Of a stretch of 64,000 nt of DNA, positions 14,044-52,757 are shown piece by piece. Both the position numbers and the translations under genes were made by a program. A model generated the notes under the pieces. It was not told the origin of the DNA, searched no databases, and saw only the letters and a list, made by a program, of their open reading frames with translations. Origin of the DNA: Anaerolineales bacterium (lineage in GTDB: Bacteria; Chloroflexota; Anaerolineae; Anaerolineales; UBA11579); the NCBI GenBank assembly GCA_035291465.1, contig DATDRZ010000129.1, positions 34,656 through 98,655 on the forward strand, given 5' to 3'. Numbering within the stretch: position 1 is the first letter of the stretch; the number at the start of each line of letters is the position of its first letter.

Positions 14044-14430
14044 TCAGCTGCTAGCCAAAGCGATCTCACCAACGAGATTGCCGTTTAAATAGATCTGGTA
14101 ATTGCCATCAGGCTGCCCAGCCATGGGTATCTCTATCGTTTCCTCAAAGGAGTGCAGGCCTTGAATGCAGGTGGCTGCCGGGCTAATAGTGCTGTAAACC
14201 TCAACATCGATGCGCCCAATAGCCGGACCTTCGTATTCATAGTGGAATTCATGGCAGGCGGTGGGCAGATCTCCGGTGATGTGCAGAGAAATGGCCGGCG
14301 GATCAGTCAGCATCGCGGAGACTTCGACCTCACCGATGTAGACGGGCTCGCGCACCTGTGTGCCAGTCGGCGAGCAAGCCGCGATAGTCACAATAAGTAA
14401 TAAGGCGAAAATCGGATTGAGTATTTTCAT
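14044..14430 (-). CDS. Small lipoprotein, uncharacterized family (paralog 1)
   Basis: Lipobox TIAAC. Shares SLHITGDLPTxCHEF, CIQ, IPMxG and YLNGxLVGE with the adjacent gene. Confidence 0.65.
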   Translation of the reverse strand: MKILNPIFALLLIVTIAACSPTGTQVREPVYIGEVEVSAMLTDPPAISLHITGDLPTACHEFHYEYEGPAIGRIDVEVYSTISPAATCIQGLHSFEETIEIPMAGQPDGNYQIYLNGNLVGEIALASS

Positions 14431-14433
14431 TTT

Positions 14434-14820
14434 TTACGCCGGGTACCTAAATTCTCCAACCAATTCGCCGTTTAGATAAACGGGATAGGAAGCTTCTCCC
14501 GATCCTTCCATTGGGATTGGGATGCTTAAGTCAAATGGTTCCAACACCTGGATGCAAACTGTGTTTGGGTCGATCTCGCTCCAGGAGGTAACGAATATGC
14601 GATTCTGCTCATCGGGTCCAGCCACCTGCGAACGGAATTCATGGCATGGCGTTGGAAGTTCGCCAGAGATGTGCAGCGAGACCTGCACCGGGTAGCTTTC
14701 CATAATCAGCAGGTCTGAGCTGTTGATGTACACAGGGCCGCCGGTCGGTGTAGGCGTTATGGGCCCGCAAGCGGCAAGCAATAGTATTGCTCCAATAAGA
14801 AATCCGATTCGTTTCAACAT
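14434..14820 (-). CDS. Small lipoprotein, uncharacterized family (paralog 2)
   Basis: Lipobox LLAAC. Same 128-aa length and the same conserved blocks as 14044..14430. Confidence 0.65.
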   Translation of the reverse strand: MLKRIGFLIGAILLLAACGPITPTPTGGPVYINSSDLLIMESYPVQVSLHISGELPTPCHEFRSQVAGPDEQNRIFVTSWSEIDPNTVCIQVLEPFDLSIPIPMEGSGEASYPVYLNGELVGEFRYPA

Positions 14821-14988: not shown

Positions 14989-16440
14989 CTAACCTTTGAC
15001 TACTGCAACAGGCCTTAGTCGCGCCACTTTACGAGCGATGCCAGCTCTGGAAACGGTCTCCACGACTTCATCCACATCCTTGTAAGCCTGGGGAGCCTCT
15101 TCGGCAAGGCCGGGCAGCGACCCGGCTTGCACATGAATGCCGCGCGCTTCGAGCTCGGCGCGCAGTTCGCTGCCGCGCACGGTCTTCTTGGCCTTTGAAC
15201 GGCTCATGGTTCGCCCGGCGCCATGGCAGGTAGAGCCAAAGGAGCGGGCCATGCTGCCTTCCGTGCCAACCAGGACCCAGGATGCAGTGCCCATGCTGCC
15301 GGGCACCAGGACGGGCTGCCCGGTCTTTTGAAATTCGCTGGCCAGGCCGGGCGTTCCAGGGCCAAAGGCGCGAGTAGCGCCTTTGCGGTGCACGCAAACT
15401 TTGACGGTTTTGCCGTCAACTGTGTGGTTTTCCACCTTGCCCATGTTGTGGGCTATGTCATAGACCTGGTGCAGGCGCCAATTCTTCACGCGCCCGGCAA
15501 GCGATTCTTCGAAGGCCTGGCGCGCGTGATAGGCGAGCAATTGCCGATTGGCAAAGGCGAAATTGGCAGCCGCGTTCATTGCGCCTAGATAAGCTTTTCC
15601 CTCCGCGGAATCCATGGGCGCGCAAACCAACTCGCGGTCCGGCAATTCAATCTTGTAACGCTGGATTGTGCTTTGGAAATCGCGTACATAATCGGTGCAG
15701 ATCTGGTGGCCGAAGCCGCGTGAACCGCAGTGGATCATCAAAGTCAGGCAACCTTCGCGCAAGCCCATGACGTCGGCTGCCTCTTGATCAAATACCTTGT
15801 CGACCACTTCAACTTCAATGAAGTGGTTCCCCGCACCCAGCGTGCCGATCTGGTTGGAGCCACGCTGTTTGGCGCGTTGGCTGACCCTGGCCGGGTCCGC
15901 GCCGGGGATGCGACCGAATTCCTCGGTGCGCCCGAGATCGGATTCGCTGGCGAAACCTTTCTTCAGTGCCCACTGCGCACCCTCGCGCATCACCTGGTCC
16001 AGCTCTCTTTCGTTCAGGCGATAATGACCACCGACTCCCACTCCGCTGGGACAGTGTTTGTTCAATGAAATCGCCAAATCGTCGAGTTTAGCTGAAACTT
16101 TGTCCAATTCGATCTGGGACGCAAGCAGTCGAACGCCGCAGTTGATGTCGTATCCAATGGCACCAGGAGAAATCACGCCATCGGGGTACTGGGTGGCGGC
16201 TACACCGCCTATTGGGAAGCCGTACCCCTGGTGCATATCGGGCATCACCACCACGCGACCTACGAGTCCCGGCAGTGTGGTTGCGTTCACCGCCTGGTCC
16301 AGAGATTTGTCACCGGCGATGGCTTCCAGCAGTTCGCGGGTGGCGAAGATGGCTACAGGCACGCGCATATCACTGCGATACGTGGAGGGGATTTCCCATT
16401 CAACGTCGCTGATTTTTTTAAGGTCAGATAGTGTGACCAC
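14989..16440 (-). CDS. rtcB: RNA 3'-phosphate/2',3'-cyclic phosphate ligase RtcB
   Basis: 483 aa. DMHQGYG, GYDINCG, GAGNHF and GSRGFGHQ motifs. Confidence 0.95.
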
Positions 16441-16449
16441 GGTTCCCTT

Positions 16450-16860
16450 TTATACGTCGAAGACGATCTCCGCTTCCAAACCCTTGGATTTCTTTTCGAC
16501 CTTGAGATTATGGTAAGTCACTGCTTTGATCTCTTTCTTGCGTTCCGCTACCGGCGACCCCTGCATCGACGCCTGCAACACAGTTTCGGATACGGTCAGA
16601 TGGAAAGTATCGAAAACCAAACCCTCTTGGTCAACAAAATGCAACAACTCGGTAAGAAAATTCACCAGCAAGCCTTCGGCGTCGGTTGATTCCACTTTAA
16701 TGCTGCGCTTAACCCGGCCGCCTTCTTTTGCCGTAATCCCCGAGAGATCCGCCATTCCTTTGGCCGCCTGCTCGAGCAATCCGGCCAGATCAGGTGCCCA
16801 GACGTGCAGAGACCAATCCGCAGTGTGCTCGCGTTCCGCGTAACCTGCGTTTTCCGACAT
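16450..16860 (-). CDS. Archease (RtcB activator)
   Basis: EHTADW...IKAVTYH motifs. Immediately upstream of rtcB. The first ATG is at 16860. Confidence 0.9.
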   Translation of the reverse strand: MSENAGYAEREHTADWSLHVWAPDLAGLLEQAAKGMADLSGITAKEGGRVKRSIKVESTDAEGLLVNFLTELLHFVDQEGLVFDTFHLTVSETVLQASMQGSPVAERKKEIKAVTYHNLKVEKKSKGLEAEIVFDV

Positions 16861-16945
16861 GTTCAGACAAATATCCTTCAATCAGTATAACGAATTAACT
16901 GCGGATAAAAGTTATAAGCAATGGGCGCACAGAGGCGGAAAAAGA

Positions 16946-16951
16946 TACAAT
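16946..16951 (+). promoter_or_regulatory. -10 box TACAAT, 7 nt upstream of the fhaA-like ATG (leaderless)
   Basis: TACAAT-ACTTTTG-ATG. Confidence 0.45.
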
Positions 16952-16958
16952 ACTTTTG

Positions 16959-17732
16959 ATGAACTCCTCCCTCAGCCGCATTGAGGCCCGCATCCAGCGC
17001 ATTATTGAAGAGGGTACGGCCAGACTCTTCTCATCGCAGGACACCAAAAGCCACCTAGCCGCCAGCCTGATCGAAGCCATGCAGGCCGAAGTGCAATTTG
17101 CCGAGGGAGACAATCTAATTGCTCCGAGTATCTACACGATCCACGCGAACCCCGACCACGCCGCCTCACTGAAGGCCAATCGCCTGGTAATGGACGAGAT
17201 TAAAGACGCGCTGCTGCAAGCCGCTGCGCGGTCGGGTATTCAAATCCCCGGCGAGCTGGTCTTCCACCTGGTGCCAGAGGATGATCTTCCCGCAGGCGGA
17301 TTCCGCGTGCGCTGCTCTGGCGCCGGAAACAATATTGGACAAACCCAATCACTGCGTACGTTGCCGAAGCCTGCAGAGCACCAGGTGCCCTCAGCCGCCT
17401 TTCTCATTGTTGCTGGCACCGAAATCTTTCCATTAAATCTACCCATCGTAAATATCGGCCGCAAAAGCGATAACCACCTGGTCATCGAAAACCCACAGGT
17501 CTCGCGCCGACATGCCCAGTTGCGTGCCATTTCAGGGCATTACCATTTCTTCGACCTCGGATCGACGGGAGGGTCGAAGGTCAACAACCAAGAAGTGAAG
17601 ACTGCGGCCTTGCTGGCCGGGGATGTGATCAGCCTGGCTGGCATTCCCTTGATCTATGGGCAAGACGCGGCGCAGTCGGGCTCCCAAACCCAAGAATTTA
17701 GGCCAAGCCCAAACGGCAGCAGTCCATCCTGA
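16959..17732 (+). CDS. FhaA-like protein (DUF3662-like N-terminal domain plus C-terminal FHA domain)
   Basis: C-terminal IGRKSDNHLVIENPQVSRRHAQL...GSTGGSKVNNQ FHA signature. Confidence 0.75.
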   Translation: MNSSLSRIEARIQRIIEEGTARLFSSQDTKSHLAASLIEAMQAEVQFAEGDNLIAPSIYTIHANPDHAASLKANRLVMDEIKDALLQAAARSGIQIPGELVFHLVPEDDLPAGGFRVRCSGAGNNIGQTQSLRTLPKPAEHQVPSAAFLIVAGTEIFPLNLPIVNIGRKSDNHLVIENPQVSRRHAQLRAISGHYHFFDLGSTGGSKVNNQEVKTAALLAGDVISLAGIPLIYGQDAAQSGSQTQEFRPSPNGSSPS

Positions 17733-17738
17733 ATCCGG

Positions 17739-18194
17739 ATGGCGGATCTTAGCGCGACAATCCTGCTTGCCCTGCGCCTATTCATGGCCGTGGCCCTTTA
17801 CGCGTTTTTGGGGTGGAGCCTTCTGGTACTTTGGCGGGATTTGAAAAACCAAGCACAAACGATCGGCAACCGAAAGGTGCCCGCCCTTGACGTTAAGTAC
17901 CTAGGGGGAGGGTTATCTGAGGAGTTGCGTTTCACTTCTCCGGAAGTTGTTATCGGACGTCACCCCAGTTGCGAATGGGTGATCCCCAACGATACTGTGT
18001 CCTCTCGCCACGCGCGCATGGTATACCATCATGATCAATGGTGGCTGGAAGATCTTGGCTCGCGCAATGGAACCTTCCTGAATGAGGTCGCCTTGAGCGA
18101 CCCCGCAGTGCTTGCTGACCAGGATCAAGTGCGCTGCGGTCAAGTGAACTTCTCGGTCAGGTTAGATGACGGCTTGGTAGACGCGCTCAAATGA
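17739..18194 (+). CDS. FhaB/FipA-like membrane-anchored FHA-domain protein
   Basis: N-terminal TM helix followed by IGRHPSCEWVIPNDTVSSRHARM...GSRNGTFLN. Confidence 0.75.
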   Translation: MADLSATILLALRLFMAVALYAFLGWSLLVLWRDLKNQAQTIGNRKVPALDVKYLGGGLSEELRFTSPEVVIGRHPSCEWVIPNDTVSSRHARMVYHHDQWWLEDLGSRNGTFLNEVALSDPAVLADQDQVRCGQVNFSVRLDDGLVDALK

Positions 18195-19057
18195 AATCCA
18201 AACCCGAACTGGCCGTTATCGGGGGCTCGGGCCTCTATTCGATCCCTATTCTTAAAGACGTCAGCGTAAAGAACGTGACCACACCTTTCGGCGAACCCAG
18301 TTCGCCGGTGGTATTGGGCACGCTGGCCGGTCGTCGCGTCGCGTTTTTGGCGCGGCACGGAGTCAATCACAGCATCCCGCCGCACCGGGTGAACTACCGC
18401 GCCAACATCTACGCGCTTAAGTCGCTGGGCGTGCGGTTTGTGGCCGCAGTCAGCGCGTGCGGTTCGCTGCGCGAGGATTACGTGCCCAGCAACGTTGTCA
18501 TTCCGGACCAGCTTTTCGACTTCACACACGTCCGGGCACGCTCATTCTTCGATGAGCCCGGTTTGGTGACACACGTCAGTGTGGCGGAACCCTTCTGTAA
18601 CGCATTCGGCAAGCAGCTGTTCAAAGCATGCAAAACCGCCAAAGCCAAGGTGCACTATGGCGGCTCCTATATCACCGTGGAAGGTCCGCGATTCTCCACT
18701 CGATCTGAGTCCAACAATTTCCGTTCCTGGGGTCACTCCATCATTGGCATGACTACTTCACCTGAGGCGTTCCTGGCCCGCGAAGCAGAACTCTGCTATG
18801 CAGTGATGGCGCATGTCACGGATTACGATGTGTGGCACGAGGAACCCGTGAACGTGGAGATGGTCATGAAGACCATGGAAAAGAACCTTAAGCTGGCCCA
18901 AGAGGTCATTCGCCATCTCGCCGCAAAACTCGACACCAATCAGGATTGTGATTGCGACACCGCGCTCGCCGGCGCCATGGTGACCAGTGCAAAGCATATT
19001 TCGAAAGGGCAGCGCAAGAAATTGGGCATCTTGGTGGACAAGTATCTCAAGAAGTGA
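18191..19057 (+). CDS. mtnP: S-methyl-5'-thioadenosine phosphorylase
   Basis: VIGGSGLY...FLARHG..H.IPPH.VNYRANI...IIGMT motifs. The ATG overlaps the fhaB-like stop (ATGA). Confidence 0.9.
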   Translation: MKSKPELAVIGGSGLYSIPILKDVSVKNVTTPFGEPSSPVVLGTLAGRRVAFLARHGVNHSIPPHRVNYRANIYALKSLGVRFVAAVSACGSLREDYVPSNVVIPDQLFDFTHVRARSFFDEPGLVTHVSVAEPFCNAFGKQLFKACKTAKAKVHYGGSYITVEGPRFSTRSESNNFRSWGHSIIGMTTSPEAFLAREAELCYAVMAHVTDYDVWHEEPVNVEMVMKTMEKNLKLAQEVIRHLAAKLDTNQDCDCDTALAGAMVTSAKHISKGQRKKLGILVDKYLKK

Positions 19058-19075
19058 GGCGCCGATGTTTCTGAT

Positions 19076-21769
19076 ATGGATAGCTTGAGTAGGGAATTGC
19101 TCCATCAGCCGGAACGCGACCTGGGCGAGGAAAATCGTGTCCCCTCGCAACTTCGGAAAGCAGAATTTTCCCTGTCCGCCAATTTATTGAGACTGGCGAC
19201 TTTATTCCTGGGGGCGTACGCGTTGGCGCTCACCATCTCGCCTGCGGTCCGTGATGGATCCTTTGATGGCTTTGGCGAACTGCGTTGGGCGCACTGGCTT
19301 GGCGTTATTGTTTGGGCTGCAGCCTTCTTTTTTCTTGATTACCAGGCCCGTCGTAGACTGCCCGGCCGCGATCCCTATCTGGTCCCGTTGGCCGGCTTGC
19401 TTTCAGGTTGGGGGCTGCTCACCATTTGGCGGCTCACTACCTGGTTTGGGTTCCGCCAAACGCTCTGGTTAGCGCTGTGTGTGGCACTATTTGCACTGGT
19501 ATTGCGCTGGAAAGATCAGATCCTCCCCGTCTTGCGCGGTTACAAATATTTGTGGCTGTTTGCAGGTTTTCTGATCACTGCACTCACTTTTCTCTTCGGC
19601 ACGAATCCCTCGGGTATCGGGCCGCGGTTGTGGCTTGGTGGCAATGGAATCTACTTCCAACCGTCGGAGATACTTAAACTTCTGCTCATCGCGTATCTGG
19701 CAGCATACCTTTCCGAACGCCAACCGCTGATGCCGGGTCTGCTGCCATTAATGGCTCCCACCGCATTGATGACGGGATTGGCTTTGCTGTTGCTGTTGAT
19801 TCAGCGTGATCTGGGCACGGCCTGGGTGTTCATCTTCATCTATACCATTGTCATTTACGCGGCTGCAGGCAAGCGGCGAGTGTTACTGGCTGCGTTGATT
19901 ATCTTAATCCTCGCCCTGGTCTCAGGCTATGAACTGGTCGGCCTGGTGCATCAACGCGTGGAGGCCTGGCTCAACCCCTGGGCAGACCCTACGGGTAGTG
20001 CCTATCAGATCATCCAGGGTTTGCTGGCCGTTGCATCTGGAGGTGTCTTTGGCCGCGGACCCGGCATGGGGCTGCCAGAAGTGGTGCCGGTCAATCATAG
20101 CGATTTCATCTTTACATCCATCGTTGAGGAGACTGGATTGCTCGGCGCCATAGGCTTGATAGTCCTGATCACGTTCCTATGTTTGCGCGCCCTGCGCATT
20201 TCTTTGCAAGCTCGCGATGCCTACCAGCGCTACCTGGCCATCGGCCTCAGCGCATACCTTGCCAGCCAGAGCCTACTGATCATAGGCGGCAATATCCGAA
20301 TGCTGCCGCTCACCGGGGTTACCTTGCCATTCGTATCCTACGGCGGCTCTTCGATGCTGGCATCCTTCGTTGCAGTACTTCTGCTTAGCCTAGTTAGCAA
20401 TGAAAGCATTAAGCGCTCGGCGCCCGTGGTGAATTGGCGCCCAACCATGGTGGTGGCCAGCATCCTGATCGTCGCTTTTGGTCTTGCAGCGGTCATCACC
20501 GGATGGTGGAGCGTTGTGCGAGGCCCGGACCTGCTTACCCGAGCCGACAACGTCCGTCGTGCCCAATCGGACAGCTTCGTCCCGCGCGGCGCGTTGATGG
20601 ATCGAGAAGGTCGCAGTATCAACGAAACAGGTGGAGGGCCTGGGGACTATTCCAGGGAATATCTGTATCCACAACTCACCAACGTGATCGGTTATTCCCA
20701 CCCAAATCTCGGCCAGTCAGGGTTGGAAGACGGCCTGGACCCAATCCTGCGCGGCGAAGAGTTTCAGCCTGCTTTCACCCTTTGGCTGAATCATCTGCTA
20801 TATGGGCAGCCGGCACCGGGCTTAAGCGTGCGACTCACACTTGATCTTGCCCTTGAACTTCGAGCTGCTGAATTGCTCAACGGCGAGCGGGGCGCGGCCG
20901 TGGTGATGGATGCGGAAACCGGCGAATTGTTGGCGATGGCCTCTGGACCGTCATTCGATCCGGCAACTCTCGACGAAAACTGGGGAGAACTCTCGTCCGC
21001 TCCGGATTCCCCGCTGCTCAATCGCGCTGCACAAGGTTCCTACACGCCGGGCTCGGCATTGGGTCCTTTTCTGCTTGCGGCGGCCAGGATGTATCGTGTC
21101 GAGCCAGCCGTGCCAACCGACCTCGGCTTTGCGGTTGATGGCCGGCGCTACGAATGCTCGCTCGAATCAGTAGATGTGGAAAGTTGGGCTCAACTTATCA
21201 AGTTCGGTTGCCCGGGGGCCTTAGCGCAATTGGGTATCGGTTTAGGCGGGGAGCGCCTGCTTGGCCTGTTCACGGATCTTGGCTTCTACTCCACCTCTCT
21301 ATTGCCGCTGGATCTCCACGCGGAACCTGCCCCAACCAGTCTGGACCGCCCCGAGGCTGCTGCGATTGGGCAGGATGAATTAAGCGTAAGCCCGTTGCAG
21401 ATTGCGCGAGCTGCATGCTCGCTCAGTAACTATGGCCACGTAGTTGCGCCTCAGATCACGCTGGCAATGCAGCAATCCAGCGGCCAGTTAGAGAACCTGC
21501 TGCCAGAGCCATCGCGAATAGAAACTTTCAGCCAAGGCGCGGCGGCCTCGGTGGCACAGAGTCTGGCTGTTAGGAACCTGCCGATCTGGGAGCTGACCGG
21601 CCAGGCCAATGGCGAAGACGGGCAAACCGTTACCTGGTACTTGGCTGGAACACTTTCTGGATTGACCCAGGATGAAAACGCGAGGTGCACTGTGATTCTG
21701 CTGGAAAGTGACCAACCTGCGCTGGCGCGTTCGATTGGCAGGGAGCTGTTGTTAGCCGCTATTGAATGA
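19076..21769 (+). CDS. Fused SEDS glycosyltransferase (RodA/FtsW family) and class B PBP (PbpA-like) with degenerate transpeptidase motifs
   Basis: SEDS blocks FQPSE, IQRDLGT, NHSDFIF and LPLTGVTLPFVSYGGSS. These are followed by an extra TM helix and PbpA-like blocks RGALMDREGRSI, VVMDAETGELLAMASGPSFDP, LLNRAAQGSYTPGSALG and AIGQDELSVSPLQ. Confidence 0.85.
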   Translation: MDSLSRELLHQPERDLGEENRVPSQLRKAEFSLSANLLRLATLFLGAYALALTISPAVRDGSFDGFGELRWAHWLGVIVWAAAFFFLDYQARRRLPGRDPYLVPLAGLLSGWGLLTIWRLTTWFGFRQTLWLALCVALFALVLRWKDQILPVLRGYKYLWLFAGFLITALTFLFGTNPSGIGPRLWLGGNGIYFQPSEILKLLLIAYLAAYLSERQPLMPGLLPLMAPTALMTGLALLLLLIQRDLGTAWVFIFIYTIVIYAAAGKRRVLLAALIILILALVSGYELVGLVHQRVEAWLNPWADPTGSAYQIIQGLLAVASGGVFGRGPGMGLPEVVPVNHSDFIFTSIVEETGLLGAIGLIVLITFLCLRALRISLQARDAYQRYLAIGLSAYLASQSLLIIGGNIRMLPLTGVTLPFVSYGGSSMLASFVAVLLLSLVSNESIKRSAPVVNWRPTMVVASILIVAFGLAAVITGWWSVVRGPDLLTRADNVRRAQSDSFVPRGALMDREGRSINETGGGPGDYSREYLYPQLTNVIGYSHPNLGQSGLEDGLDPILRGEEFQPAFTLWLNHLLYGQPAPGLSVRLTLDLALELRAAELLNGERGAAVVMDAETGELLAMASGPSFDPATLDENWGELSSAPDSPLLNRAAQGSYTPGSALGPFLLAAARMYRVEPAVPTDLGFAVDGRRYECSLESVDVESWAQLIKFGCPGALAQLGIGLGGERLLGLFTDLGFYSTSLLPLDLHAEPAPTSLDRPEAAAIGQDELSVSPLQIARAACSLSNYGHVVAPQITLAMQQSSGQLENLLPEPSRIETFSQGAAASVAQSLAVRNLPIWELTGQANGEDGQTVTWYLAGTLSGLTQDENARCTVILLESDQPALARSIGRELLLAAIE

Positions 21770-21794
21770 AAAAGAACGAGTAAGTCGCTCTATT

Positions 21795-23009
21795 TCACAT
21801 CTCCACTCTTACGAATCTTCGCTTGCCCACTTGAAGGACCCCGGGGCCGGGGAAGGTCGCCACAGGATCTTCCAGGGTCTTGCCGTCCAGGCGCACCCCG
21901 CCTTGCTCGATCAGGCGGCGCGCTTCGCTTTTGCTCTTTACAAGTTTCGCCCCCATCAGTACATCCAAAACCGTGTGCTTTGCGCTCGCCTTGAACTCCG
22001 GCATCTCTTCTGGGACGTCGCCTTCCTGAAAGACACGGGCGAAGGTCTCCCGCGCTTCCTTTGCCGATTGATCTCCATAAAAGATCTCGGTGATCTCAGT
22101 GGCTAGCTCCACTTTCGCGTCACGGGGATGCAGGCTGTTATCAGCCAGCGCCTTTTCCTTGGCGGCGATCTGGCCGGCGGTCCAGCGCGTTGTAAGGCGC
22201 ATGTACGCGCCCATGGCGATGTCAGGCACGCTCATCACTTTGCCGAACATGTCGTTGGCATCGGTGTTAAGCGGAATGTGATTGCCCAGCGATTTGCTCA
22301 TGCGGATCACTCCATCAGTGCCGGGCAGGATGCCCATGATGATGCCGATGTTGGGTTTGGCGCCCAAAGCAGTCATCAGCTTGCGCCCGGCGGTAATGAT
22401 GTTGAAGAGTTGGTCGGTGCCACCCACCTGCACATCCGCCTTCAAAACGTAGGCATCGTAAGCTTGCATGATGGAGTAAAAAGTCTCGTGCAGGTAGATC
22501 GGATCACCTTTTTCCCAGCGCAGGTGGAAATTCTCGCGGGTGAGGAATTGCTGGATGGTGAAATTCGATGCGAATCTGATCAAGTCGGCAAACGTCACTT
22601 TGGAAAGCCATTCGCCGTTATAACGCACATCGGTCTTGTCACGTTCCAGCACGCGGAAAGCCTGCTCCGCATACGTTCGCGCGTTTTCCTCAACTTGTTC
22701 CTGGGAAAGCAGCGGGCGCAGCCTGTCTTGATCGGACGGATCTCCAATAAGAGATGTGTACGTTCCCACGACGAAAATAACGTGATGTCCGAGATCCTGG
22801 AACTGACGCAGCTTGCGCAATGGAATGGTGTGGCCCAGGTGCAAGTCTGTTGTGCGCGGGTCGATGCCCAGGTACACGCGCAGGTTGTTTCCGGTCTTCT
22901 CGGCTTCAAGCAACCGTGTACGCAGCTCCGCTTCCATGGCGCTGCGGAGTTGTTCGTCGCCGTATTCAGTGCCCTGCATCAACGTGGCTACTTGTGCATC
23001 GATATTCAT
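21795..23009 (-). CDS. tyrS: Tyrosine--tRNA ligase
   Basis: HLGH (HIGH) and RMSKS (KMSKS) motifs with a C-terminal S4 domain. ATG 23009 is preceded by GAGGAG. The TTG at 23021 lies inside the SD. Confidence 0.95.
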   Translation of the reverse strand: MNIDAQVATLMQGTEYGDEQLRSAMEAELRTRLLEAEKTGNNLRVYLGIDPRTTDLHLGHTIPLRKLRQFQDLGHHVIFVVGTYTSLIGDPSDQDRLRPLLSQEQVEENARTYAEQAFRVLERDKTDVRYNGEWLSKVTFADLIRFASNFTIQQFLTRENFHLRWEKGDPIYLHETFYSIMQAYDAYVLKADVQVGGTDQLFNIITAGRKLMTALGAKPNIGIIMGILPGTDGVIRMSKSLGNHIPLNTDANDMFGKVMSVPDIAMGAYMRLTTRWTAGQIAAKEKALADNSLHPRDAKVELATEITEIFYGDQSAKEARETFARVFQEGDVPEEMPEFKASAKHTVLDVLMGAKLVKSKSEARRLIEQGGVRLDGKTLEDPVATFPGPGVLQVGKRRFVRVEM

Positions 23010-23292: not shown

Positions 23293-23808
23293 ATGGAGAG
23301 CCATCTTAAGGAACCTGTCCTTGTCCTCAACGCGAATTACGAACCGCTGAACGTCTGCACCATCCGGCGAGCCGTGGGTTTGATCTTCGCCGATAAGGCC
23401 TCCATGCTAGTCAACGGCCGCGGGGAGATTCACACCGCCCACGCTATGTTCCCCGCCCCATCTGTCATCCGCCTGGAGCGCATGATCAAGCGCCCCCGCC
23501 CCAGTGTAAAGCTGAACAAGCAGGAAGTGTTCCGACGGGATAATTACACCTGCCAGTACTGCGGCCGCAGCGATCTAGACTTGACATTGGATCACCTAAT
23601 CCCCCGTCGCCTAGGCGGCAGGCATAGTTGGGACAATTTGGTGACCGCCTGCAGGGTCTGCAACCACCGTAAAGGGGGTCGCATGGCCGACAGCGCCGGA
23701 ATGAGGCTAATGAACTATCCTATGGCGCCAACCGCATCGGCACAGTATATATTCGGACGCTATCTAAATCAGAACCAAGACTGGGGAAACTACATCCAAG
23801 GTTGGTAA
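23293..23808 (+). CDS. HNH endonuclease
   Basis: CQYCGR...LTLDHLIPRRLGG...WDNLVTACRVCNHRKG HNH/zinc motif. Confidence 0.85.
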   Translation: MESHLKEPVLVLNANYEPLNVCTIRRAVGLIFADKASMLVNGRGEIHTAHAMFPAPSVIRLERMIKRPRPSVKLNKQEVFRRDNYTCQYCGRSDLDLTLDHLIPRRLGGRHSWDNLVTACRVCNHRKGGRMADSAGMRLMNYPMAPTASAQYIFGRYLNQNQDWGNYIQGW

Positions 23809-33712: not shown

Positions 33713-36700
33713 ATGAAAGCCTTGATGTCTGTTCGCGTTCTTTTAGGCAGTATGTTTTCCGCGCTTATTCTCAGCGCCATTTTGTCGTTTCCGGCCATGG
33801 CTGAAGGGGACGAGCCGCCTTCCGATCCCGTTCCTACTGCAGAATCGGATCATGCCGGCGAGCCGCTGACCGAGGAGGGAGAGGAAGTGCAAACAATGGA
33901 AACGGTTCCTGCCATTGTAGATAATCCTGGGGGAACAGGCGAATCTGGAACTGCAGGAGGTACGGAAAGTCAGGATGAAATAGGACCCGCGGGTGATTCC
34001 GGTGATACTCCCCTCCTGCCAGCAGAGATCCCGACGGACATGGGTTTGATAGTTGTGGCGGAGGATGGGACTCCCCTGCCCTTGGCCAGCGAGGAAGCCG
34101 CGGAACTCATAGAAGTCATCGATCCCCGCTGGTGCCCGGTGGGAGTGACGCCTGGTGGAGCGAGTTGCACAGCTCCTTACACCAGCCTGTGGCTGTTGAT
34201 CAAAGCTATCGCTGACGGCGATATTCCGGAGCCGTCTACCAACGGCGTGATCTGGATCCAGGCGGGCGAGGACCAGTCCAATTTCGATATTGTTATGGAT
34301 GGAAATGCCGCACATTTTACGAATTGGGCAAAATATCAATTAACTCTTAAAGGTGGCTGGAGCGGCGGAAACAATACCAGTATCAATATATCTAACCCAT
34401 CGGTATTCGATCAAAGCATCTCGATTCTCAATTGGGGCAATTATGTGGGTTTAAGTGATATTACTTTTGACGGTGGTGGGTTGGAGATCAGTACCACCGG
34501 CAAAGTAACCTTGACTCGTGTTCACGTAAAGAATGGCAGCGGCGCGGAGATCGACAATGATGCCGGAATCCAGGATGTCGTCATCACCTCCAGCGAATTT
34601 TCAGATAATACTGGGGCTGGTCTGACGGTTTTCTCAAAAGGAGCTATTACGCTCAATAATGTGAGCGCGATAAATAACGCAGGCGACGGCGCCAACCTCA
34701 ATAATGCAGGTGGCGTGGCAAAAGCCGTTACCCTGAACGGGACGAACATTTTTGCCGAGAATGAGGGATCTGGCTTGGTCATCCGCAGCAAAGGGGCAAT
34801 CACAATTAACAACCTGATCGCAAACGCCAATGGAGCCTATGGCGCCGATTTGGCGAATGACACAGCATCTACCGCGCAACCCGTGTACTTGAAATACAGC
34901 AATGAATTCAAATACAACGGCTCGACCGGCCTGCTGATCAACTCGGTAGGCACGGTCACTCTGACCAAAATCACCGCGATCCACAACAGCGGCGATGGAA
35001 CGCTCATCGATAACACCGGTCCCTTTTACGCCAACGTCACCATCAACGGCGTGAACCAGTTTAGTTACAACGGCACGGATGGGCTAGTGGTGTCCAGCTC
35101 CGGGAATATCACGCTATATAACGTGTCCGCTACCAACAACGGCCTTGGCGGAGTCTGCGGCTCGGGTGCCATCCTGGACAACTCGAGTGTTGCATTTCCG
35201 AAATCAGTGGTGCTGAAAGGGGCAAATACGTTCGGCCTGAACTTGGATGATGGTTTGGTTATTGATAGCTATGGGGCCATCACCATCAATAACCTCATTG
35301 CCAGCGGAATCGAAAACGGGTCCGGGGCGCTGCTGAATAACCGGATTCAGGCAACCAACCAGCAAAACGTAACACTTACCGGTCTGACAGTAGCAGATGA
35401 CAACGGAGGCTTTGGCCTGCAGATATCCAGCTTTGGGAATGTCAGCATCGGCAAGTTGGCCGCCAGCAGGAATGGTGAAACAGGGTTGGAAATTGTGAAC
35501 GACGCGGGTATCTACCCAAGGAATGTGTTGCTGGCTGGAGGAGCAATGCTGAATGAGAACAGTGGCACAGGGCTTGACGTGACCAGCGCAGGGGCGATTA
35601 CGGTCACCAGCCTACTGGCCAATGGCAATGGCCTGGCTGGCGCAAGCCTGGACAATTCACCTGGCAAGGCCCCAGTCACGATAAAGGGCATCAACGGCTT
35701 TTCCGGCAATCTGGGCGGGCGAGGGCTGGAGGTTTCCAGCCAGGGCAATATCACGCTCTACAATTTTGTAGCTAGCGACAATTCTGGAGACGGTGTTTAT
35801 TTGAACAATGGATTTTCTGGAGCTACGGGAAATGTAAGCATAGTTACCTCTGTAGCCAAATGGTGCAATGAAGCCAACTGGAATGCCGGGTCCGGCATCA
35901 GCATCAAAAGCAATGGGGCCGTGGCGGCAAGCAACCTTTGTGCCGAAGGGAATGGGAGCATCGCCACGCCGGGATACGGTGCCTTAATTGATAACCACAA
36001 CGCGCTGGGTATCAAATCGGTCACCCTTACAGGTGGCAATTCATTTACTCAGAATTACACAGGTGGGATAAAGATCCTGAGTGCGGGCGCGATGAAGCTC
36101 ACTAACATTACTGCCTCACAAAGCATCAAAGGCCCTGGAGCTGAGTTCAACAACACCCATAGCGGCGTGATTTCACCCCAGCTCATCAGTATTTCGGGGA
36201 CGAATTCCTTTTCGGCCAACTATGGGAACGGATTGACTATCCTCTCCTATGGCGCCATCAGCGCAAGCAACCTGAATGCAAGCAGCAACGGAGCCAACGA
36301 TGGCAGCGGCTATGGCGCACGGATTGACAATTGCGGCGCCGTCGAGGGCGCCTGCACGGCCCAGCTGGCCAGGCCGGTCACTTTGACTGGTCAAAATTCA
36401 TTCAACCTGAATTCGGAGTATGGGCTGACGCTAAGCAGCTTGGGCGCAATCACTGTCAATAAAGTTCGGGCTCAATTGAACGACGAAAGCGGTGCGGAAA
36501 TCAAGAATGATTTCCCAGGAGCCACCGCCGGGATCACAATTGTCGGATTCGCTATCTTTAATGAGAATGAAGTCAATGGATTGGAGATTGCCAGCCGGGG
36601 ATTCGTATCGCTAGCAAACCTTCAGGCTTCTGAGAACGGTGCCTTCGGGGCGACCGTAAGCAATTTGAACTCCCCGTTTTCCAAAGGGATTACCTTGCTG

Positions 36701-37963
36701 GGCGCGAATGTGTTTGAAGGGAACAACGATAATGGGCTGCTCATTGAATCCTTGGGCCCAATAACGGCGAGCAACCTGGCTGCCTCCCACAATGGCGGCT
36801 ATGGGGTTAGATTGGATAATGCAACCGGGATCGGGGCGATTGCTTTGACCGGCGCACAAAAATTTCAGCAGAATCAATCAAACGGGGTGGAGATTTATAG
36901 TAAAAGGGCCGTCACTATTAACAACCTGACATCCTCCCTCAATCTCCAGTACGGTGCCTTGATCGACAACAGCGCTTTCGGGCTTCCTTACGATGTGAAA
37001 CTCACCGGGACGAATTCGCTAAATGGAAATGGAGAATCAGGCCTGGAGCTGACCACATTAGGAGCAATCTATGTAAGTAATCTGACGGCCAGCGCTAACG
37101 GTCAGGATGTCGAAGCCGAATCTGGCTATGGCGCCTACCTTGATAACCAGACAGGCGCTTCCATCGCCAAGCCAATCACGATTGCAGGCATAAATACATT
37201 CAGCGATAACCGCTTGGACGGCCTGCGGGTTGTATCGCTTGGAATGATCAAGGCCAATTCGCTGACAGCGAATTGGAACAAGGGAATCGGCGTTTCGCTG
37301 AATAATGAGCCAGGCAGCAGTTCGGCGGGTGTTTACATTACGGGTAGCAATTACTTCGCAGGAAACACCGGCACGGGACTGAAGGTGGATAGCAAAGGCG
37401 TCATTGTTTTGGCTAATCTCACCGCGGAAGCGAACCTTGGCGGGGGTGTGAAGATCGACAATTCAACCTCCGACGCCTCCAACGGGGTGGCGATAACAGG
37501 CACCAGCAATTTCAATTTCAATGGGACGGCTGAGGCGGAAGGGTCCGGATTGGTGGTCGCCAGCCGGGGGAAGATTACGCTGAATAACGTGATGGCGAAT
37601 GAGAACTATGGGAAGGGAGTATTCCTTAACAATATGGGTTTCGCAATTGGCTCGCCTGGGGTTACTCTAACCGGCGTTAATACTTTTTCTGGTAATAGCG
37701 TTACAGGGTTGTTCATATTGTCGGCCGGCGACGTCAGTCTAAACAACGTTGCCGCAGATGGTAATACGGGCGACGGTGTGTACGTCGCCTCTCTGAAAAA
37801 TGTAACCCTGACGTGCGCCAGTATTACAACGAACGATGGCACTGGCTTGTTCATTTCGGCGCTTGTGGGCAAGGTTACTCTCAAGGGTGTCTTTGCCTAT
37901 GGCAATGATTATGAAAACAGGCACATATCCGCCGGGGATTTCGTAGAGGCGCGCAACTGTTAG
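33713..37963 (+). CDS. Secreted giant right-handed parallel beta-helix repeat protein (adhesin or surface-layer candidate)
   Basis: Signal peptide ...SFPAMA/EGDE, an acidic Pro-rich linker, a Cys-containing head domain, then about 21 tandem modules of roughly 50 aa matching G-L-x-[IV]-x-S-x-G-x-[IV]-T-[LI]-x-N-[LV]-x-A-x-x-N-x-x-x-G-A. Confidence 0.8.
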   Translation: MKALMSVRVLLGSMFSALILSAILSFPAMAEGDEPPSDPVPTAESDHAGEPLTEEGEEVQTMETVPAIVDNPGGTGESGTAGGTESQDEIGPAGDSGDTPLLPAEIPTDMGLIVVAEDGTPLPLASEEAAELIEVIDPRWCPVGVTPGGASCTAPYTSLWLLIKAIADGDIPEPSTNGVIWIQAGEDQSNFDIVMDGNAAHFTNWAKYQLTLKGGWSGGNNTSINISNPSVFDQSISILNWGNYVGLSDITFDGGGLEISTTGKVTLTRVHVKNGSGAEIDNDAGIQDVVITSSEFSDNTGAGLTVFSKGAITLNNVSAINNAGDGANLNNAGGVAKAVTLNGTNIFAENEGSGLVIRSKGAITINNLIANANGAYGADLANDTASTAQPVYLKYSNEFKYNGSTGLLINSVGTVTLTKITAIHNSGDGTLIDNTGPFYANVTINGVNQFSYNGTDGLVVSSSGNITLYNVSATNNGLGGVCGSGAILDNSSVAFPKSVVLKGANTFGLNLDDGLVIDSYGAITINNLIASGIENGSGALLNNRIQATNQQNVTLTGLTVADDNGGFGLQISSFGNVSIGKLAASRNGETGLEIVNDAGIYPRNVLLAGGAMLNENSGTGLDVTSAGAITVTSLLANGNGLAGASLDNSPGKAPVTIKGINGFSGNLGGRGLEVSSQGNITLYNFVASDNSGDGVYLNNGFSGATGNVSIVTSVAKWCNEANWNAGSGISIKSNGAVAASNLCAEGNGSIATPGYGALIDNHNALGIKSVTLTGGNSFTQNYTGGIKILSAGAMKLTNITASQSIKGPGAEFNNTHSGVISPQLISISGTNSFSANYGNGLTILSYGAISASNLNASSNGANDGSGYGARIDNCGAVEGACTAQLARPVTLTGQNSFNLNSEYGLTLSSLGAITVNKVRAQLNDESGAEIKNDFPGATAGITIVGFAIFNENEVNGLEIASRGFVSLANLQASENGAFGATVSNLNSPFSKGITLLGANVFEGNNDNGLLIESLGPITASNLAASHNGGYGVRLDNATGIGAIALTGAQKFQQNQSNGVEIYSKRAVTINNLTSSLNLQYGALIDNSAFGLPYDVKLTGTNSLNGNGESGLELTTLGAIYVSNLTASANGQDVEAESGYGAYLDNQTGASIAKPITIAGINTFSDNRLDGLRVVSLGMIKANSLTANWNKGIGVSLNNEPGSSSAGVYITGSNYFAGNTGTGLKVDSKGVIVLANLTAEANLGGGVKIDNSTSDASNGVAITGTSNFNFNGTAEAEGSGLVVASRGKITLNNVMANENYGKGVFLNNMGFAIGSPGVTLTGVNTFSGNSVTGLFILSAGDVSLNNVAADGNTGDGVYVASLKNVTLTCASITTNDGTGLFISALVGKVTLKGVFAYGNDYENRHISAGDFVEARNC
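34500..37900 (+). repeat. Degenerate tandem coding repeats (about 150 bp / 50 aa modules, about 21 copies) inside the giant gene
   Basis: Modules are readable in the translation (LTVFSKGAITLNNVSAINNAGDGANLNN..., LVIRSKGAITINNLIANANGAYGADLAN..., and so on). They are divergent at the DNA level. Confidence 0.7.
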
Positions 37964-50286: not shown

Positions 50287-50310
50287 AAACGCCCGGATCG
50301 CCGGGCGTTT
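50287..50310. terminator. Bidirectional terminator
   Basis: aaacgcccgg-atcg-ccgggcgttt is a perfect 10-bp stem. It overlaps the stop codon of the convergent slt gene. Confidence 0.75.
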
Positions 50311-52757
50311 CATTGTTCCGTAGAATATAGATTGCTGTAAATCGTGAATAATTCGTAAACGCTGCGAATGTGATTGCGCGTCTCTGCAAATTGGATCACT
50401 TCTAAGAGCAAATCCTGATCCTCGCCTGCCAAACTTGTCCAATACGAAGCCCAACCAGGGCCTGCGTTGTAAGCTGCCAAGGTGGCATACAGGTCGTCGT
50501 TGAACGCATGTTTCTGCACGGCCAGGTAATCTGCACCCAGGCGGATGCTGACGATCGGGCGATACAGATCATCAGGCGTGAAATCGGGTGGCCAGCCGGC
50601 CAGCGTTGCTGCTTCTTGGCCCGTGCTTGGGATGATTTGCAGCAGTCCGCGGGCCCCGGCAGACGAAGTGACGAATCCTTCGAAGAGACTCTCCTGGCGC
50701 ATCATGCTGTAGAAAAACAGCGGGTCGAGGCCTTCGGCTCGGGTTTCCCTCTCGACCAGATCACGGAAATAGGTCCCAAATCGAATTCGGTTGAAATACG
50801 TGGGCGCATTCATGGTGGCAGCATCGCTCATACCGGCCATCGTCAGTACCTCACGGGCCGCAAAGATTCCCGTGCGATAGAGCCCAAGATCGATCAGATA
50901 ATTCGCCAGGCGGTAAGAGTTGGCCGGGTCGGCGATCAAGCTCAGGCGTAAGTCCTCGAATTCAGCGCGTGCCAGCTCGTATTCGCCCAGGCGCCACAAT
51001 TCAGCACCGCGCATGAAGCGCGGATCGCTAAACAACGGCCCCGGGTCGCTAAGGTCGATATCGGCTGGCAAATCAAAGGTGTCACGGATCCAGGCTTCGG
51101 CCTCCAGCCGCTCAGCGTCCACTTCGTAATCGAACCAGTACGAAGCCGGTGGCTGGAACGGTTCAAGGCCGGCCAGGATGTCGCTGGCCCTCTCGCTGTA
51201 ATAGCCAGTCGGGTCCACAGCAGCCGCTTGCTGCCAGGCATTTTGCGCGCCATCCTCGTTGCCCTGGGCTCGTAAGGCCTTAGCCACCCAAAACAATGCT
51301 TGCGATTGCTGCTCTGGACTTAGCGCAGTCTGATAGGCGCGCAGGAAAAGACTCTGCGCGCCGGAGTAATCTTTGAGGCGATAGGTGCTGATACCAGCGA
51401 GAAAAACGGAGTCATAGGCAAACTCGGATGAGGGATATTCGTCAGCCACGCGCGGCCAAATCTCGATCGAACGGGTCAGGCGGCCGCCGCGCTCTGCTAT
51501 CCGGCCTGCCTCGAAGAGGAACTCTGCAGATGCAGGTTGGCTTGGAGTGGCTGCCACGAAACCTAGTAAGGTATTGATGGCGCCTTCGTAATTCTCTTGA
51601 TTGAACCACTGAGTGGCCGCTTTTTCGGAGAATGCGTCCACCCAATGCTCATCGAATCCATGTTTGGAAATGATGTGGTCGAACTCTTGGATTGCGCCGA
51701 AGTAATCTCTGATTTCGCGCAAAGCCAGCCCGCGGTAATAATGCGCCGTATCGGTGTGATTATCTGGGTTGGAAGCCAGGTAGCGATCGAAGGCGGCAAT
51801 AGCTACACCGTAAAGCTCCTGTTGGTTCCCCTCGTCGGTCGTTAGGGTTGCAGTGTTGTAGTCAATCAGCCCACGCTGCAATTCGTCAACTGCTACCCCT
51901 GCATTTACGAGTTCCACTAACGCGGCGTAACTTGAATAGGCCAGGGGATAGTTGACCACCGCGTGCAGATAATAGGTATGGGCTTGTACTGTTTCGCCCA
52001 ACTCCAAGTAACCGCGCCCGATCAGCAGATCCATATCGGCCTTCAGGTAATCATTGGTCGTGCTGTTCAAAATCGCTTGGTAGGTTGCGATTGCCGCTGC
52101 AAAATCGCCTGCTCGGAATTGCGCGTTGCCGATCTTGACTTTTAAAATCGAATTATCACCCCGGCGGTCGGCCTCCAACCCTGCTTCGTACGCTGCGATC
52201 GCCGCGTCATATTCAGAGGCGGCAAGCAATTGGTCGCCGCGCAATTCCTGTACATAGGAATCAAGTCGGCCGGGGCGCAATTCCAGATAGCGCTGATAGG
52301 CTTCAGCCGCAGCTTGCGAGTCATTGAATTCCTCGTACACAGAGGCCAGTGCGTAGTATGTACTGGCCAACGCTTCGGCACCAGGGAAAGTGTCTACCAA
52401 TCCCTCCAATGTTTGACGCGCCCGCGAATAATTCCCCATTGCCGCGTGGGTACGACCGATACCCAACGTGGCCGCGGCGCGTAATTCCTCATCCTGACTT
52501 TCGGAAAGTACTCGTTGATATTCGTCCAAGGCGCCATCCCAATCGCCGTAGAAGAAGGCCAGGTCGCCGGCTGCGACGCGCGCCTCGTTAGTCAATGTGG
52601 GGGCTGATGTCGGGATCGGCGTCGGGCTGGAAGTTGTCGTTGGGTTGGATGGGGAGGTCGAGGTGGGCAGCGAAGGATCGAGCACTCGCTGCAGATTGCA
52701 GGCCTGGCCTGCTAGCACCAAGGCGGCCAGCAGCAAAGGCCAGGCGTTGCGTCTCAT
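50310..52757 (-). CDS. TPR-repeat soluble lytic murein transglycosylase (Slt-like)
   Basis: Signal/lipobox-like N-terminus, long TPR region, and a C-terminal SLT domain (MRQESLFEGFVTSSAGARGLLQIIPSTG...AAYNAGPG). Confidence 0.85.
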   Translation of the reverse strand: MRRNAWPLLLAALVLAGQACNLQRVLDPSLPTSTSPSNPTTTSSPTPIPTSAPTLTNEARVAAGDLAFFYGDWDGALDEYQRVLSESQDEELRAAATLGIGRTHAAMGNYSRARQTLEGLVDTFPGAEALASTYYALASVYEEFNDSQAAAEAYQRYLELRPGRLDSYVQELRGDQLLAASEYDAAIAAYEAGLEADRRGDNSILKVKIGNAQFRAGDFAAAIATYQAILNSTTNDYLKADMDLLIGRGYLELGETVQAHTYYLHAVVNYPLAYSSYAALVELVNAGVAVDELQRGLIDYNTATLTTDEGNQQELYGVAIAAFDRYLASNPDNHTDTAHYYRGLALREIRDYFGAIQEFDHIISKHGFDEHWVDAFSEKAATQWFNQENYEGAINTLLGFVAATPSQPASAEFLFEAGRIAERGGRLTRSIEIWPRVADEYPSSEFAYDSVFLAGISTYRLKDYSGAQSLFLRAYQTALSPEQQSQALFWVAKALRAQGNEDGAQNAWQQAAAVDPTGYYSERASDILAGLEPFQPPASYWFDYEVDAERLEAEAWIRDTFDLPADIDLSDPGPLFSDPRFMRGAELWRLGEYELARAEFEDLRLSLIADPANSYRLANYLIDLGLYRTGIFAAREVLTMAGMSDAATMNAPTYFNRIRFGTYFRDLVERETRAEGLDPLFFYSMMRQESLFEGFVTSSAGARGLLQIIPSTGQEAATLAGWPPDFTPDDLYRPIVSIRLGADYLAVQKHAFNDDLYATLAAYNAGPGWASYWTSLAGEDQDLLLEVIQFAETRNHIRSVYELFTIYSNLYSTEQ

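Follow-up and report, generated by a model that had tools for sequence, protein, structure and literature searches.

What remains of a penicillin-binding protein that is joined to a cell-wall polymerase and has lost its catalytic motifs, and why would it be kept? This question is raised by an open reading frame (ORF) at positions 19076..21769 of a stretch of 64,000 nucleotides from an Anaerolineales bacterium of the Chloroflexota (positions 34,656 to 98,655 of contig DATDRZ010000129.1, assembly GCA_035291465.1), which was analysed as a whole and is called the window in the following. Pairs of SEDS glycosyltransferases and penicillin-binding proteins of class B (bPBPs) form the core of cell-wall synthesis in most bacteria and are targets of beta-lactams. 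Whether the bPBP contributes to them by its chemistry or by allosteric activation is a question that has been addressed mainly by point mutants in a few model species. The ORF in the window combines both partners in one chain, and an initial annotation of the sequence had described it as a natural fusion of a SEDS protein with a PbpA whose transpeptidase module is predicted to be dead. Judged from alignments and models, the transpeptidase (TPase) lobe is very probably non-catalytic, and we consider it likely that the protein works as an active SEDS polymerase with a built-in, non-catalytic bPBP as activator or scaffold, cross-linking being performed in trans.

The fusion is composed, in this order, of a SEDS glycosyltransferase, a cytoplasmic linker, an eleventh transmembrane (TM) helix, and a PbpA-type pedestal with a transpeptidase fold. 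Translation of 19076..21769 gives an ATG start and 897 codons with no internal stop, and all sequence strings quoted in the initial annotation were found in it. The features of the fusion are the following:

19076..21769, plus strand: SEDS-pseudoPbpA fusion ORF, whole, stop codon included (897 aa; AlphaFold2 (AF2) model with pLDDT 90.8 and pTM 0.86)
19445..20404, plus strand: SEDS (FtsW/RodA/SpoVE) glycosyltransferase core, residues 124-443 (PF01098; FQPSE(198)ILK(201), QRD(245)LGT, NHSD(343)F, PLTGVTLPFVSYGGSS)
20102..20104, plus strand: codon of Asp343, counterpart of the essential SEDS catalytic Asp (alignment to 6bar)
20405..20437, plus strand: cytoplasmic linker, residues 444-454, from SEDS TM10 to the PBP anchor (gap between AF2 helices 424-444 and 455-481)
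20438..20518, plus strand: TM11, the former bPBP membrane anchor, residues 455-481, with a conserved GWW at its end (AF2 helix)
20519..20875, plus strand: juxtamembrane segment and PbpA-type pedestal (PBP_dimer_2), residues 482-600 (PF21922, 21.2 bits, sub-threshold)
20876..21766, plus strand: transpeptidase-fold lobe without catalytic residues, residues 601-897 (PF00905, 63.5 bits; Foldseek)
21053..21064, plus strand: degenerate SxxK motif, S660-A-L-G663 (aligned on PGSTFK / PGSTIKP of solved PBPs)
21155..21157, plus strand: Cys694, partner of Cys712 in a predicted disulfide to a beta-hairpin (invariant in homologues)
21206..21214, plus strand: degenerate SxN motif, G711-C712-P713 (aligned on S-S-N / S-x-N of solved PBPs)
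21593..21601, plus strand: degenerate KTG motif, L840-T841-G842 (alignment to 181 intact relatives)

In the Pfam database, FTSW_RODA_SPOVE (PF01098) matches residues 124-443 (E=5e-70; 236.7 bits against a cut-off of 26.4 bits) and Transpeptidase (PF00905) matches residues 606-832 (E=2e-17; 63.5 bits against 22.1 bits). Searches with phmmer against the sequences of the PDB led from the N-terminal half to FtsW (8p1u, 8bh1) and RodA (6bar, 6pl5, 8tj3) and from the C-terminal half to PbpA-type and other class B PBPs. The AF2 model, calculated with 83 homologues in the alignment, is confident throughout and places the helix 455-481 between the SEDS core and the ectodomain, in agreement with the extra TM helix noticed initially. 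SEDS proteins have ten helices and a cytoplasmic C-terminus, and bPBPs have a single anchor helix; the modelled topology is thus as expected for a SEDS C-terminus joined to a bPBP anchor. The linker lies at the site where the SEDS gene stops and the PBP gene starts in unfused relatives. Within TM11, G476, W477, and W478 are invariant or nearly so among the 83 homologues, and W478 is conserved in intact PbpA as well. At the start of this helix (Met458), an in-frame ATG-GTG-GTG at 20447-20455 was observed, with no obvious Shine-Dalgarno sequence upstream, which could be a relic of the old pbpA start. For the ectodomain, the best Foldseek matches were the TPase domain of a ‘peptidoglycan glycosyltransferase’ of Eggerthella lenta (4mnr), Atopobium parvulum 4jbf and related entries, and M. 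tuberculosis PbpA (3un7, 3lo7), with E values of about 1e-20 and target-normalised TM-scores of 0.77-0.80 over about 430-450 columns for 4mnr, 4jbf, and 3un7. The PBP half is a PbpA-type bPBP by fold and descent, as had been proposed.

At all three catalytic sites of this fold, the sequence is degenerate. In residue-level alignment to solved PBPs, PGSALGP retains Ser660 and has Gly663 in place of the Lys of SxxK. Residues 711-713 read G-C-P at a position where intact relatives have S-C-N in 100% of cases, and the Lys of KTG is replaced by Leu840. Lys and Thr are found at 840 and 841 in 100% of the intact relatives; in the clade of dead domains described below the Lys is missing throughout, and no residue exceeds about 20% at either position. 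The loss of both lysines and of the Ser and Asn of SxN is in accordance with the initial annotation, and intact SxxK, SxN, or KTG motifs were found nowhere else in the PBP domain. Since the SEDS centre is there and the TPase centre is gone, the fusion is not rightly called bifunctional: it is a member of the SEDS family combined with a PbpA-type bPBP by fold and descent, and the three features of a D,D-transpeptidase or penicillin-binding enzyme that were tested are all missing from it.

The lobe might still act as an enzyme through non-canonical residues, either with Cys712 as a nucleophile as in L,D-transpeptidases or with Ser660 and another general base. Such a proposal can draw on the invariance of Cys694 and Cys712 in the 83 homologues, on the presence of Ser660 in the window protein, and on the purifying selection acting on the lobe. 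However, Cys712 is the ‘x’ of the ancestral S-C-N, and in Chloroflexota PbpA with intact motifs both Cys are commonly found as well. In M. tuberculosis PBPa (3un7), the x residue of SxN is disulfide-bonded to a beta-hairpin over the active site (PMC9974482). Because of these two observations, Cys712 was ruled out as a new nucleophile, and the Cys694-Cys712 pair is best read as a retained structural staple, probably a disulfide, and not as a new catalytic centre. Furthermore, the nucleophile position varies (S, T, A, G, P, or N) over the 68+120+120 dead sequences of our surveys, all of which lack the SxxK Lys; conservation has likewise gone from K840, T841, and T843 of the oxyanion and beta3 strand, and the dead clade has no newly conserved lobe position. 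We regard a non-canonical enzyme as highly improbable.

In contrast to the TPase centre, the SEDS half looks active, as the conserved SEDS motifs are all there, including the catalytic Asp; polymerase activity is predicted on this basis. In phmmer alignments (E values of 1e-31 to 1e-29 for FtsW 8p1u and RodA 6bar/6pl5), HSD343F falls on HTD255F of T. thermophilus RodA and FQPSE198ILK201 on FQPLELAK of 6bar. In the 83 homologues, no variation is seen at D343, at E198 and K201, in QRD245LGT, or in the C-terminal PLTG...YGGSS block, and Asp343 is retained in 96/96 representatives of the survey given below, so that the module appears complete, as the initial annotation had stated. The NCBIfam profiles TIGR02614 (ftsW; 238 bits, cut-off 337.5) and TIGR02210 (rodA; 207 bits, cut-off 336.7) both score under their cut-offs, and the SEDS half can therefore be assigned to neither equivalog by profile. 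Its context, with a PbpA-type partner and fhaA and fhaB genes, suggests by analogy that it is RodA-like.

A fusion of this kind may arise by misassembly or by a missed frameshift. In four independent metagenome runs from soil and sediment, Logan contigs extend over 19000-21850 without a gap and with few single-nucleotide differences. A search with the fusion protein gave at least 120 homologues at 46-100% identity; among the matches listed, motif loss was found in all, nearly all were full-length fusions of 850-909 aa besides a few shorter fragments, and nearly all came from metagenome-assembled genomes (MAGs) of Anaerolineales, Anaerolineae, or Chloroflexota. The gap-free contigs and more than 100 homologues with the same ORF rule out an assembly or frameshift artefact, and together with the conserved synteny they show that the fusion is natural; the junction is genuine. 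A scan of one genome per GTDB species yielded 19 Anaerolineae loci, the nearest two with 84% and 79% identity. The nearest of these relatives (84%; L013:4324-6973, JAMCZK010000021.1) has a frameshift within the TPase lobe that splits the gene into two overlapping ORFs and accounts for a 609-aa NCBI protein (P0046); given a coverage of about 3x, it is probably a sequencing error. Matches to cluster representatives that comprise the PBP or the SEDS part only were considered as split genes and rejected, as the one examined, P0247 (locus L003), begins at a contig edge, so that they are probably fragments.

In order to place the motif loss, 1.8 billion cluster representatives were scanned in full, which resulted in 96 fusions of at least 780 aa, 89 of them with a complete PBP part. 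All three motifs are missing in 68 of these and intact in the remaining 21 (PGS[TA]FK, S-C-N, GKTGTA), with no intermediates. The PBP part of an intact fusion, used as query, retrieved at least 120 stand-alone PbpA proteins of 441-534 aa (Chloroflexota, Anaerolineae, Caldilineae) with all motifs intact (PGS[TVI][FW]K, S-C-N, GKTGTA); in total, the intact state was observed at all three motifs for 181 relatives (21 fused, 160 stand-alone), again without intermediates. A third arrangement was found among the GTDB loci: in L019, L020 (Aggregatilineales), and L022, a separate SEDS gene is followed by a separate PbpA gene that is dead as well, with GGTLQ / ACP / GGHA or GSTLE / GCP / HGQA at the three sites. 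The protein of L020 led to at least 120 further unfused homologues of 467-498 aa, and 120/120 of those listed are without the SxxK Lys, the SxN Ser and Asn, and the KTG Lys. Fusion and motif loss are thus conserved among orthologues, and the loss is not peculiar to the window gene or to the fused state, because the dead clade also holds unfused PbpA beside a separate SEDS gene.

In neighbour-joining trees of the PBP part, 100/100 dead domains (68 fused, 32 unfused of the Aggregatilineales type) form one clade, whose sister is fully intact stand-alone Chloroflexota PbpA. As all sampled dead domains fall into this clade, the motif loss looks like a single ancient event. Fused and unfused states have switched at least once inside it according to the tree. 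The idea that motif loss preceded fusion, raised by the unfused dead genes, was dropped since a few of the fused lineages branch off before the unfused clade in the tree; fusion with later fission, or repeated fusion, may account for the switch. In the Aggregatilineales-type unfused dead proteins (P0401-P0520), the strand at the former KTG site carries a well conserved motif (I/V)-D-I-G-G-H-(A/S)-x-(L/V/I)-A-Y-S, and the SxN site reads F-A-C-P-x. The conservation of the strand is not shared by the fused clade and may mark a lineage-specific new interaction.

What has been kept of the PBP half was analysed by a column-by-column comparison of 68 dead and 61 intact PBP parts. Conservation in both groups was observed for 39 positions, 19 of which lie within residues 478-594 (W478 in the TM helix, the others in the juxtamembrane segment and pedestal). 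The positions conserved in intact proteins alone (S660, K663, T666, S711, N713, F716, K840, T841, T843, H852, G880, P886) are all active-site positions, and no position of the TPase lobe is newly conserved in the dead group. At 40-50% identity of the SEDS half, the TPase lobe has an identity of 27% among dead fusions against 42% among intact ones, and the pedestal 38% against 35%. In the least saturated pair of loci (L008 vs L009), the Nei-Gojobori ratio of nonsynonymous to synonymous substitution rates (dN/dS) is 0.05 for the SEDS half, 0.11 for the pedestal, and 0.27 for the TPase lobe; other pairs gave 0.09-0.22 for the lobe. As the identity of the lobe is lowered at matched SEDS divergence and its dN/dS is still below 1, the lobe is a folded domain freed from the constraint of catalysis that remains under purifying selection. 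The pedestal, by these measures, appears as constrained as in active enzymes.

These numbers also bear on the view that the PBP half is a functionless, decaying relic carried along by an essential SEDS gene. This view would agree with a TPase lobe that evolves about 3-5x faster than the SEDS half, and with two MAGs, one without the ectodomain (L017) and one frameshifted in it (L013). The dN/dS values well under 1 are opposed to it, as are the full-length frame, which is preserved in homologues as distant as about 35% identity (well over 100 sequences), and the length of 467-498 aa kept by the unfused dead PbpA in 120/120 listed matches; the L013 frameshift sits in the low-coverage assembly mentioned above. 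A relic is very improbable, and this explanation, together with the artefact, is largely refuted.

Purifying selection on a dead lobe could alternatively mean that the lobe has been repurposed, either to sense stem peptides or nascent strands and so gate the polymerase, or to recruit a separate transpeptidase by the pairing of two bPBPs, a mode suggested for PBP2b and PBP3 of B. subtilis and for SpoVD and PBP3 of C. difficile. Well over 300 sampled sequences preserve the fold with a length of about 300 aa, at a dN/dS of 0.09-0.27, the Aggregatilineales-type sub-clade has its motif I-D-I-G-G-H-A-x-L-A-Y-S at the former KTG site, and inactive bPBPs that work with a second bPBP provide a precedent (summarised in PMC12516126). 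However, no surface or groove residue is newly conserved over the whole dead clade, which argues against one shared ligand; a linked partner gene was not found in the window or the fetched loci, and the domain is absent from the L017 orthologue. We consider repurposing unlikely, although it is less remote than residual catalysis or a relic.

The genes next to the fusion offer a further clue. It is the last of four tightly packed genes, preceded by:

16956..17732, plus strand: FhaA-like gene (FhaA_N and C-terminal FHA), first of the cluster (Pfam FhaA_N E=1.2e-12, FHA E=1.3e-14)
17739..18194, plus strand: FhaB/FipA-like gene (N-terminal TM helix and FHA; Pfam FHA E=1.6e-19, N-terminal hydrophobic helix)
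18191..19057, plus strand: S-methyl-5'-thioadenosine phosphorylase (MTAP) gene (NCBIfam TIGR01694, 298.8 bits, over the cut-off)

The FhaB-like gene scores 80.6 bits with the NCBIfam profile FhaB_Rv0019c, under its 125-bit cut-off. With the fhaB stop the MTAP gene has an overlap of 4 nt, and 18 nt separate its end from the fusion. The initial annotation had the fusion follow the FhaA- and FhaB-like genes; this order stands, with the difference that the MTAP gene intervenes. The order fhaA-fhaB-MTAP-fusion was found in 15/15 related loci with sufficient flank. The actinobacterial cluster has the order fhaA-fhaB-pstP-rodA-pbpA-pknA-pknB, and the window echoes it without pstP and pknA/pknB, as noticed initially: no Pkinase or PP2C domain was detected by Pfam scan among nearly all predicted ORFs of the window, nor among the called genes of the loci L001 and L002. 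The MTAP gene takes the position of pstP, a conserved link of methionine and polyamine salvage with rodA-pbpA, and it lies directly upstream of the SEDS gene in fused-dead (window), unfused-dead (L020, L022), and unfused-intact (L025) arrangements. Divergent genes for archease and RtcB are located upstream of the cluster; downstream follow a convergent tyrosyl-tRNA synthetase (TyrRS) gene and then an HNH gene, which are present in most related loci. A promoter scan of 16400-22200 gave three promoter-like sites, which is chance level, with none in the intergenic region upstream of fhaA. The sole terminator-like site after a gene end in the same region is located at 21791-21773 on the minus strand, in the convergent gap between the fusion and the TyrRS gene.

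The domain order, the motif loss from a single origin, the course of selection, and the synteny are shown by the sequences. Taking these results together, we propose a reading of the fusion in which we infer that the SEDS half is active, that the pedestal activates it, that cross-links are made in trans, and that FHA proteins exert control. The fusion would be a single-chain peptidoglycan synthase module with the SEDS half as a lipid II glycan polymerase and the bPBP half as a pseudoenzyme. The retained anchor helix would pack against the SEDS membrane domain, and the retained PbpA-type pedestal would switch the polymerase on, as in the RodA-PBP2 and FtsW-FtsI complexes. In these, the bPBP is known to bind and activate its SEDS partner by TM helix and pedestal, and the published structures have the pedestal in contact with the SEDS protein. 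The folded, disulfide-stapled TPase lobe would neither be acylated nor make 4-3 cross-links, and the PBP half would act as a built-in activator or scaffold, maybe also as a docking or positioning element. Another enzyme, be it another bPBP, a class A PBP, or an L,D-transpeptidase, would cross-link the glycan strands. The upstream FHA proteins (phosphothreonine-binding) may connect the fusion to Ser/Thr phosphorylation as in actinobacteria, which is suggested by its position at the end of an fhaA-fhaB-mtnP(MTAP)-rodA::pbpA* cluster resembling the actinobacterial one.

The activator or scaffold model is supported by a conservation pattern that matches its prediction for a non-catalytic partner: residues of the TM helix and pedestal are retained, losses are restricted to the active site, and dN/dS is below 1. 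An allosteric or scaffolding role of the PBP module, suggested in the initial annotation, would fit the same observations. PBP2 is known to activate polymerisation by RodA, and the two proteins retain function when fused by engineering (PMC6207328). Catalytically inactivated bPBPs can support division or sporulation of B. subtilis and C. difficile when a second bPBP is there (summarised in PMC12516126).

Several points weigh against this reading. In the fusion protein, PBP_dimer_2 (PF21922) matches residues 504-584 with 21.2 bits, under the 27-bit cut-off; PF21922 is a precomputed match in many close homologues, and the Foldseek alignment spans the same pedestal region. The contacts of TM11 with the SEDS domain and of the pedestal with extracellular loop 4 are assumed from the high pTM of the model. 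A hidden Markov model of intact PbpA, run against all ORFs of the window and of 26 loci with flanks of up to 10 kb on each side, gave no second transpeptidase and led back to the known genes only; a further PBP was not detected by Pfam scan among nearly all predicted ORFs of the window either. Dead and intact proteins (10 of each, from the matches listed) had no close NCBI accession blocks, and the longest contigs with dead fusions (5.37 Mb, 2.24 Mb, and others) had no equal in length among those of the intact PbpA matches listed. No kinase or phosphatase was found nearby, so that FHA control is an analogy only. Finally, the orthologue in L017:10043-11533 (JBBDXR010000032.1, Anaerolineales MAG LejiaD_59_59) has just 496 aa and comprises the SEDS half and TM11, followed by 27 unrelated residues, a stop, and directly thereafter the syntenic TyrRS gene. 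The whole pedestal and TPase ectodomain (about 1.2 kb) is gone, either as a real deletion allele or as a MAG artefact; a real deletion would mean that some lineages have a polymerase that does not require the pedestal.

More tentatively, and with less probability than the activator or scaffold model itself, a large clade of Anaerolineae may have built its RodA-type peptidoglycan with a SEDS polymerase whose obligate bPBP partner has been a pseudoenzyme since a single ancient loss. Polymerisation and cross-linking would then be permanently uncoupled in the elongation machine, fused in Anaerolineales and unfused in the Aggregatilineales type, and the lobe would have taken on a new function apart from catalysis, perhaps sensing the condition of the wall or providing a docking site for a separate cross-linker such as an L,D-transpeptidase or class A PBP. 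If this were true, the elongation machine would be intrinsically insensitive to beta-lactams.

Several other genes were recorded around the cluster and in the remaining window. The genes of the RtcB RNA ligase and its cofactor archease (14989-16881, minus strand) are divergent from fhaA; many loci have the pair beside the cluster, and the RtcB gene of L026 contains an intein (995 aa; RtcB, Intein_splicing, RtcB). The small HNH endonuclease gene (23293-23808, plus strand) is syntenic downstream of TyrRS in most related loci, which is unusual for a nuclease of the mobile-element type and suggests a housekeeping role. Two tandem 128-aa ORFs without Pfam match are located at 14044-14820 on the minus strand, between a gene for an MFS transporter and RtcB; their syntenic counterparts in L001 have precomputed matches to PF27154 (ORF11_beta). 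A protein of 1416 aa with right-handed beta-helix repeats (33713-37963, plus strand), probably secreted or exposed at the surface, is encoded downstream of an Opp-type peptide ABC transporter operon and has a syntenic equivalent of 1514 aa in L001. Two genes of cell-wall type are no transpeptidases: an 815-aa protein rich in tetratricopeptide repeats with a C-terminal SLT lytic transglycosylase domain (50310-52757, minus strand) and a 431-aa M23 peptidase (53626-54921, plus strand).

Among known systems, the actinobacterial RodA-PbpA pair, as in M. tuberculosis (3lo7, 3un7), shares with the fusion the bPBP subtype with its pedestal (PBP_dimer_2, sub-threshold in the fusion), the TPase fold, the Cys at the ‘x’ of SxN with its disulfide to the beta-hairpin (predicted in the fusion), the SEDS gene directly upstream, and the genes for FhaA (FhaA_N and FHA) and FhaB (TM helix and FHA) in the same cluster. 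The fusion differs in its single ORF, in the loss of the three motifs, and in the MTAP gene at the pstP position, and the window differs in that Ser/Thr kinases and phosphatases were not found among its scanned ORFs. A closer counterpart in Chloroflexota is the stand-alone PbpA of locus L025 (GCA_034431435.1), where MTAP, a SEDS gene (439 aa), and PbpA (466 aa, 4-bp overlap) follow one another and PbpA has the same Cys pair. This locus looks orthologous by its gene order and would be the unfused, active counterpart of the window arrangement. Stand-alone Chloroflexota PbpA, the nearest intact sister clade, differs from the fusion by its separate genes and by motifs that are intact in all 120 sampled proteins.

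Natural SEDS-bPBP chimeras, among them proteins from Rhodococcus jostii and Senegalimassilia faecalis, are reported with 117 InterPro entries and have been termed putative ‘bifunctional class B PG synthases’ (PMC12516126, 2025). They have the same order of glycosyltransferase, TM helix, pedestal, and TPase in one polypeptide of about 900 aa. These chimeras keep their catalytic triads, like the 21 intact fusions of our representative survey, whereas the fusions of the dead clade are monofunctional at best. The Eggerthella 4mnr and Atopobium 4jbf proteins may belong with such chimeras; domains of the 4jbf type bind beta-lactams according to PDB titles. In the main text of PMC12516126, the terms ‘active site’, ‘SxxK’, and ‘catalytic serine’ do not occur, and the two mentions of Chloroflexota concern other architectures, not fusions. 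Public names of the dead-clade proteins (‘FtsW/RodA/SpoVE family cell cycle protein’, ‘penicillin-binding protein A’, ‘peptidoglycan glycosyltransferase’) and the label ‘bifunctional’ from this recent survey of such fusions overstate their function.

Two laboratory systems are comparable as well. B. subtilis PBP2b* and C. difficile SpoVD* likewise separate the support of a SEDS protein from transpeptidase chemistry, and the engineered RodA-PBP2 and SpoVE-SpoVD fusions likewise function with both partners covalently joined. PBP2b* and SpoVD* are single substitutions made in the laboratory that need a known second bPBP, whereas the loss in the dead clade is natural, ancient, complete, and fixed. 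The dead clade is thus a natural, ancient knock-out of bPBP chemistry in which TM helix, pedestal, and fold persist, in one order welded to the polymerase, and it offers an evolutionary test of the ‘activator’ role of bPBPs. The fusion would provide a single-chain, beta-lactam-blind SEDS complex, maybe convenient for structural and biochemical work, and it is a pointer to another arrangement of cross-linking in a major group of filamentous bacteria of soil and sludge that has been little studied. In the literature searched, neither a SEDS protein with a bPBP partner that is dead by nature nor a SEDS-PBP fusion in Chloroflexota was described, which is not proof of absence. Natural SEDS-bPBP fusions were already known; compared with them, the naturally dead partner appears to be new.

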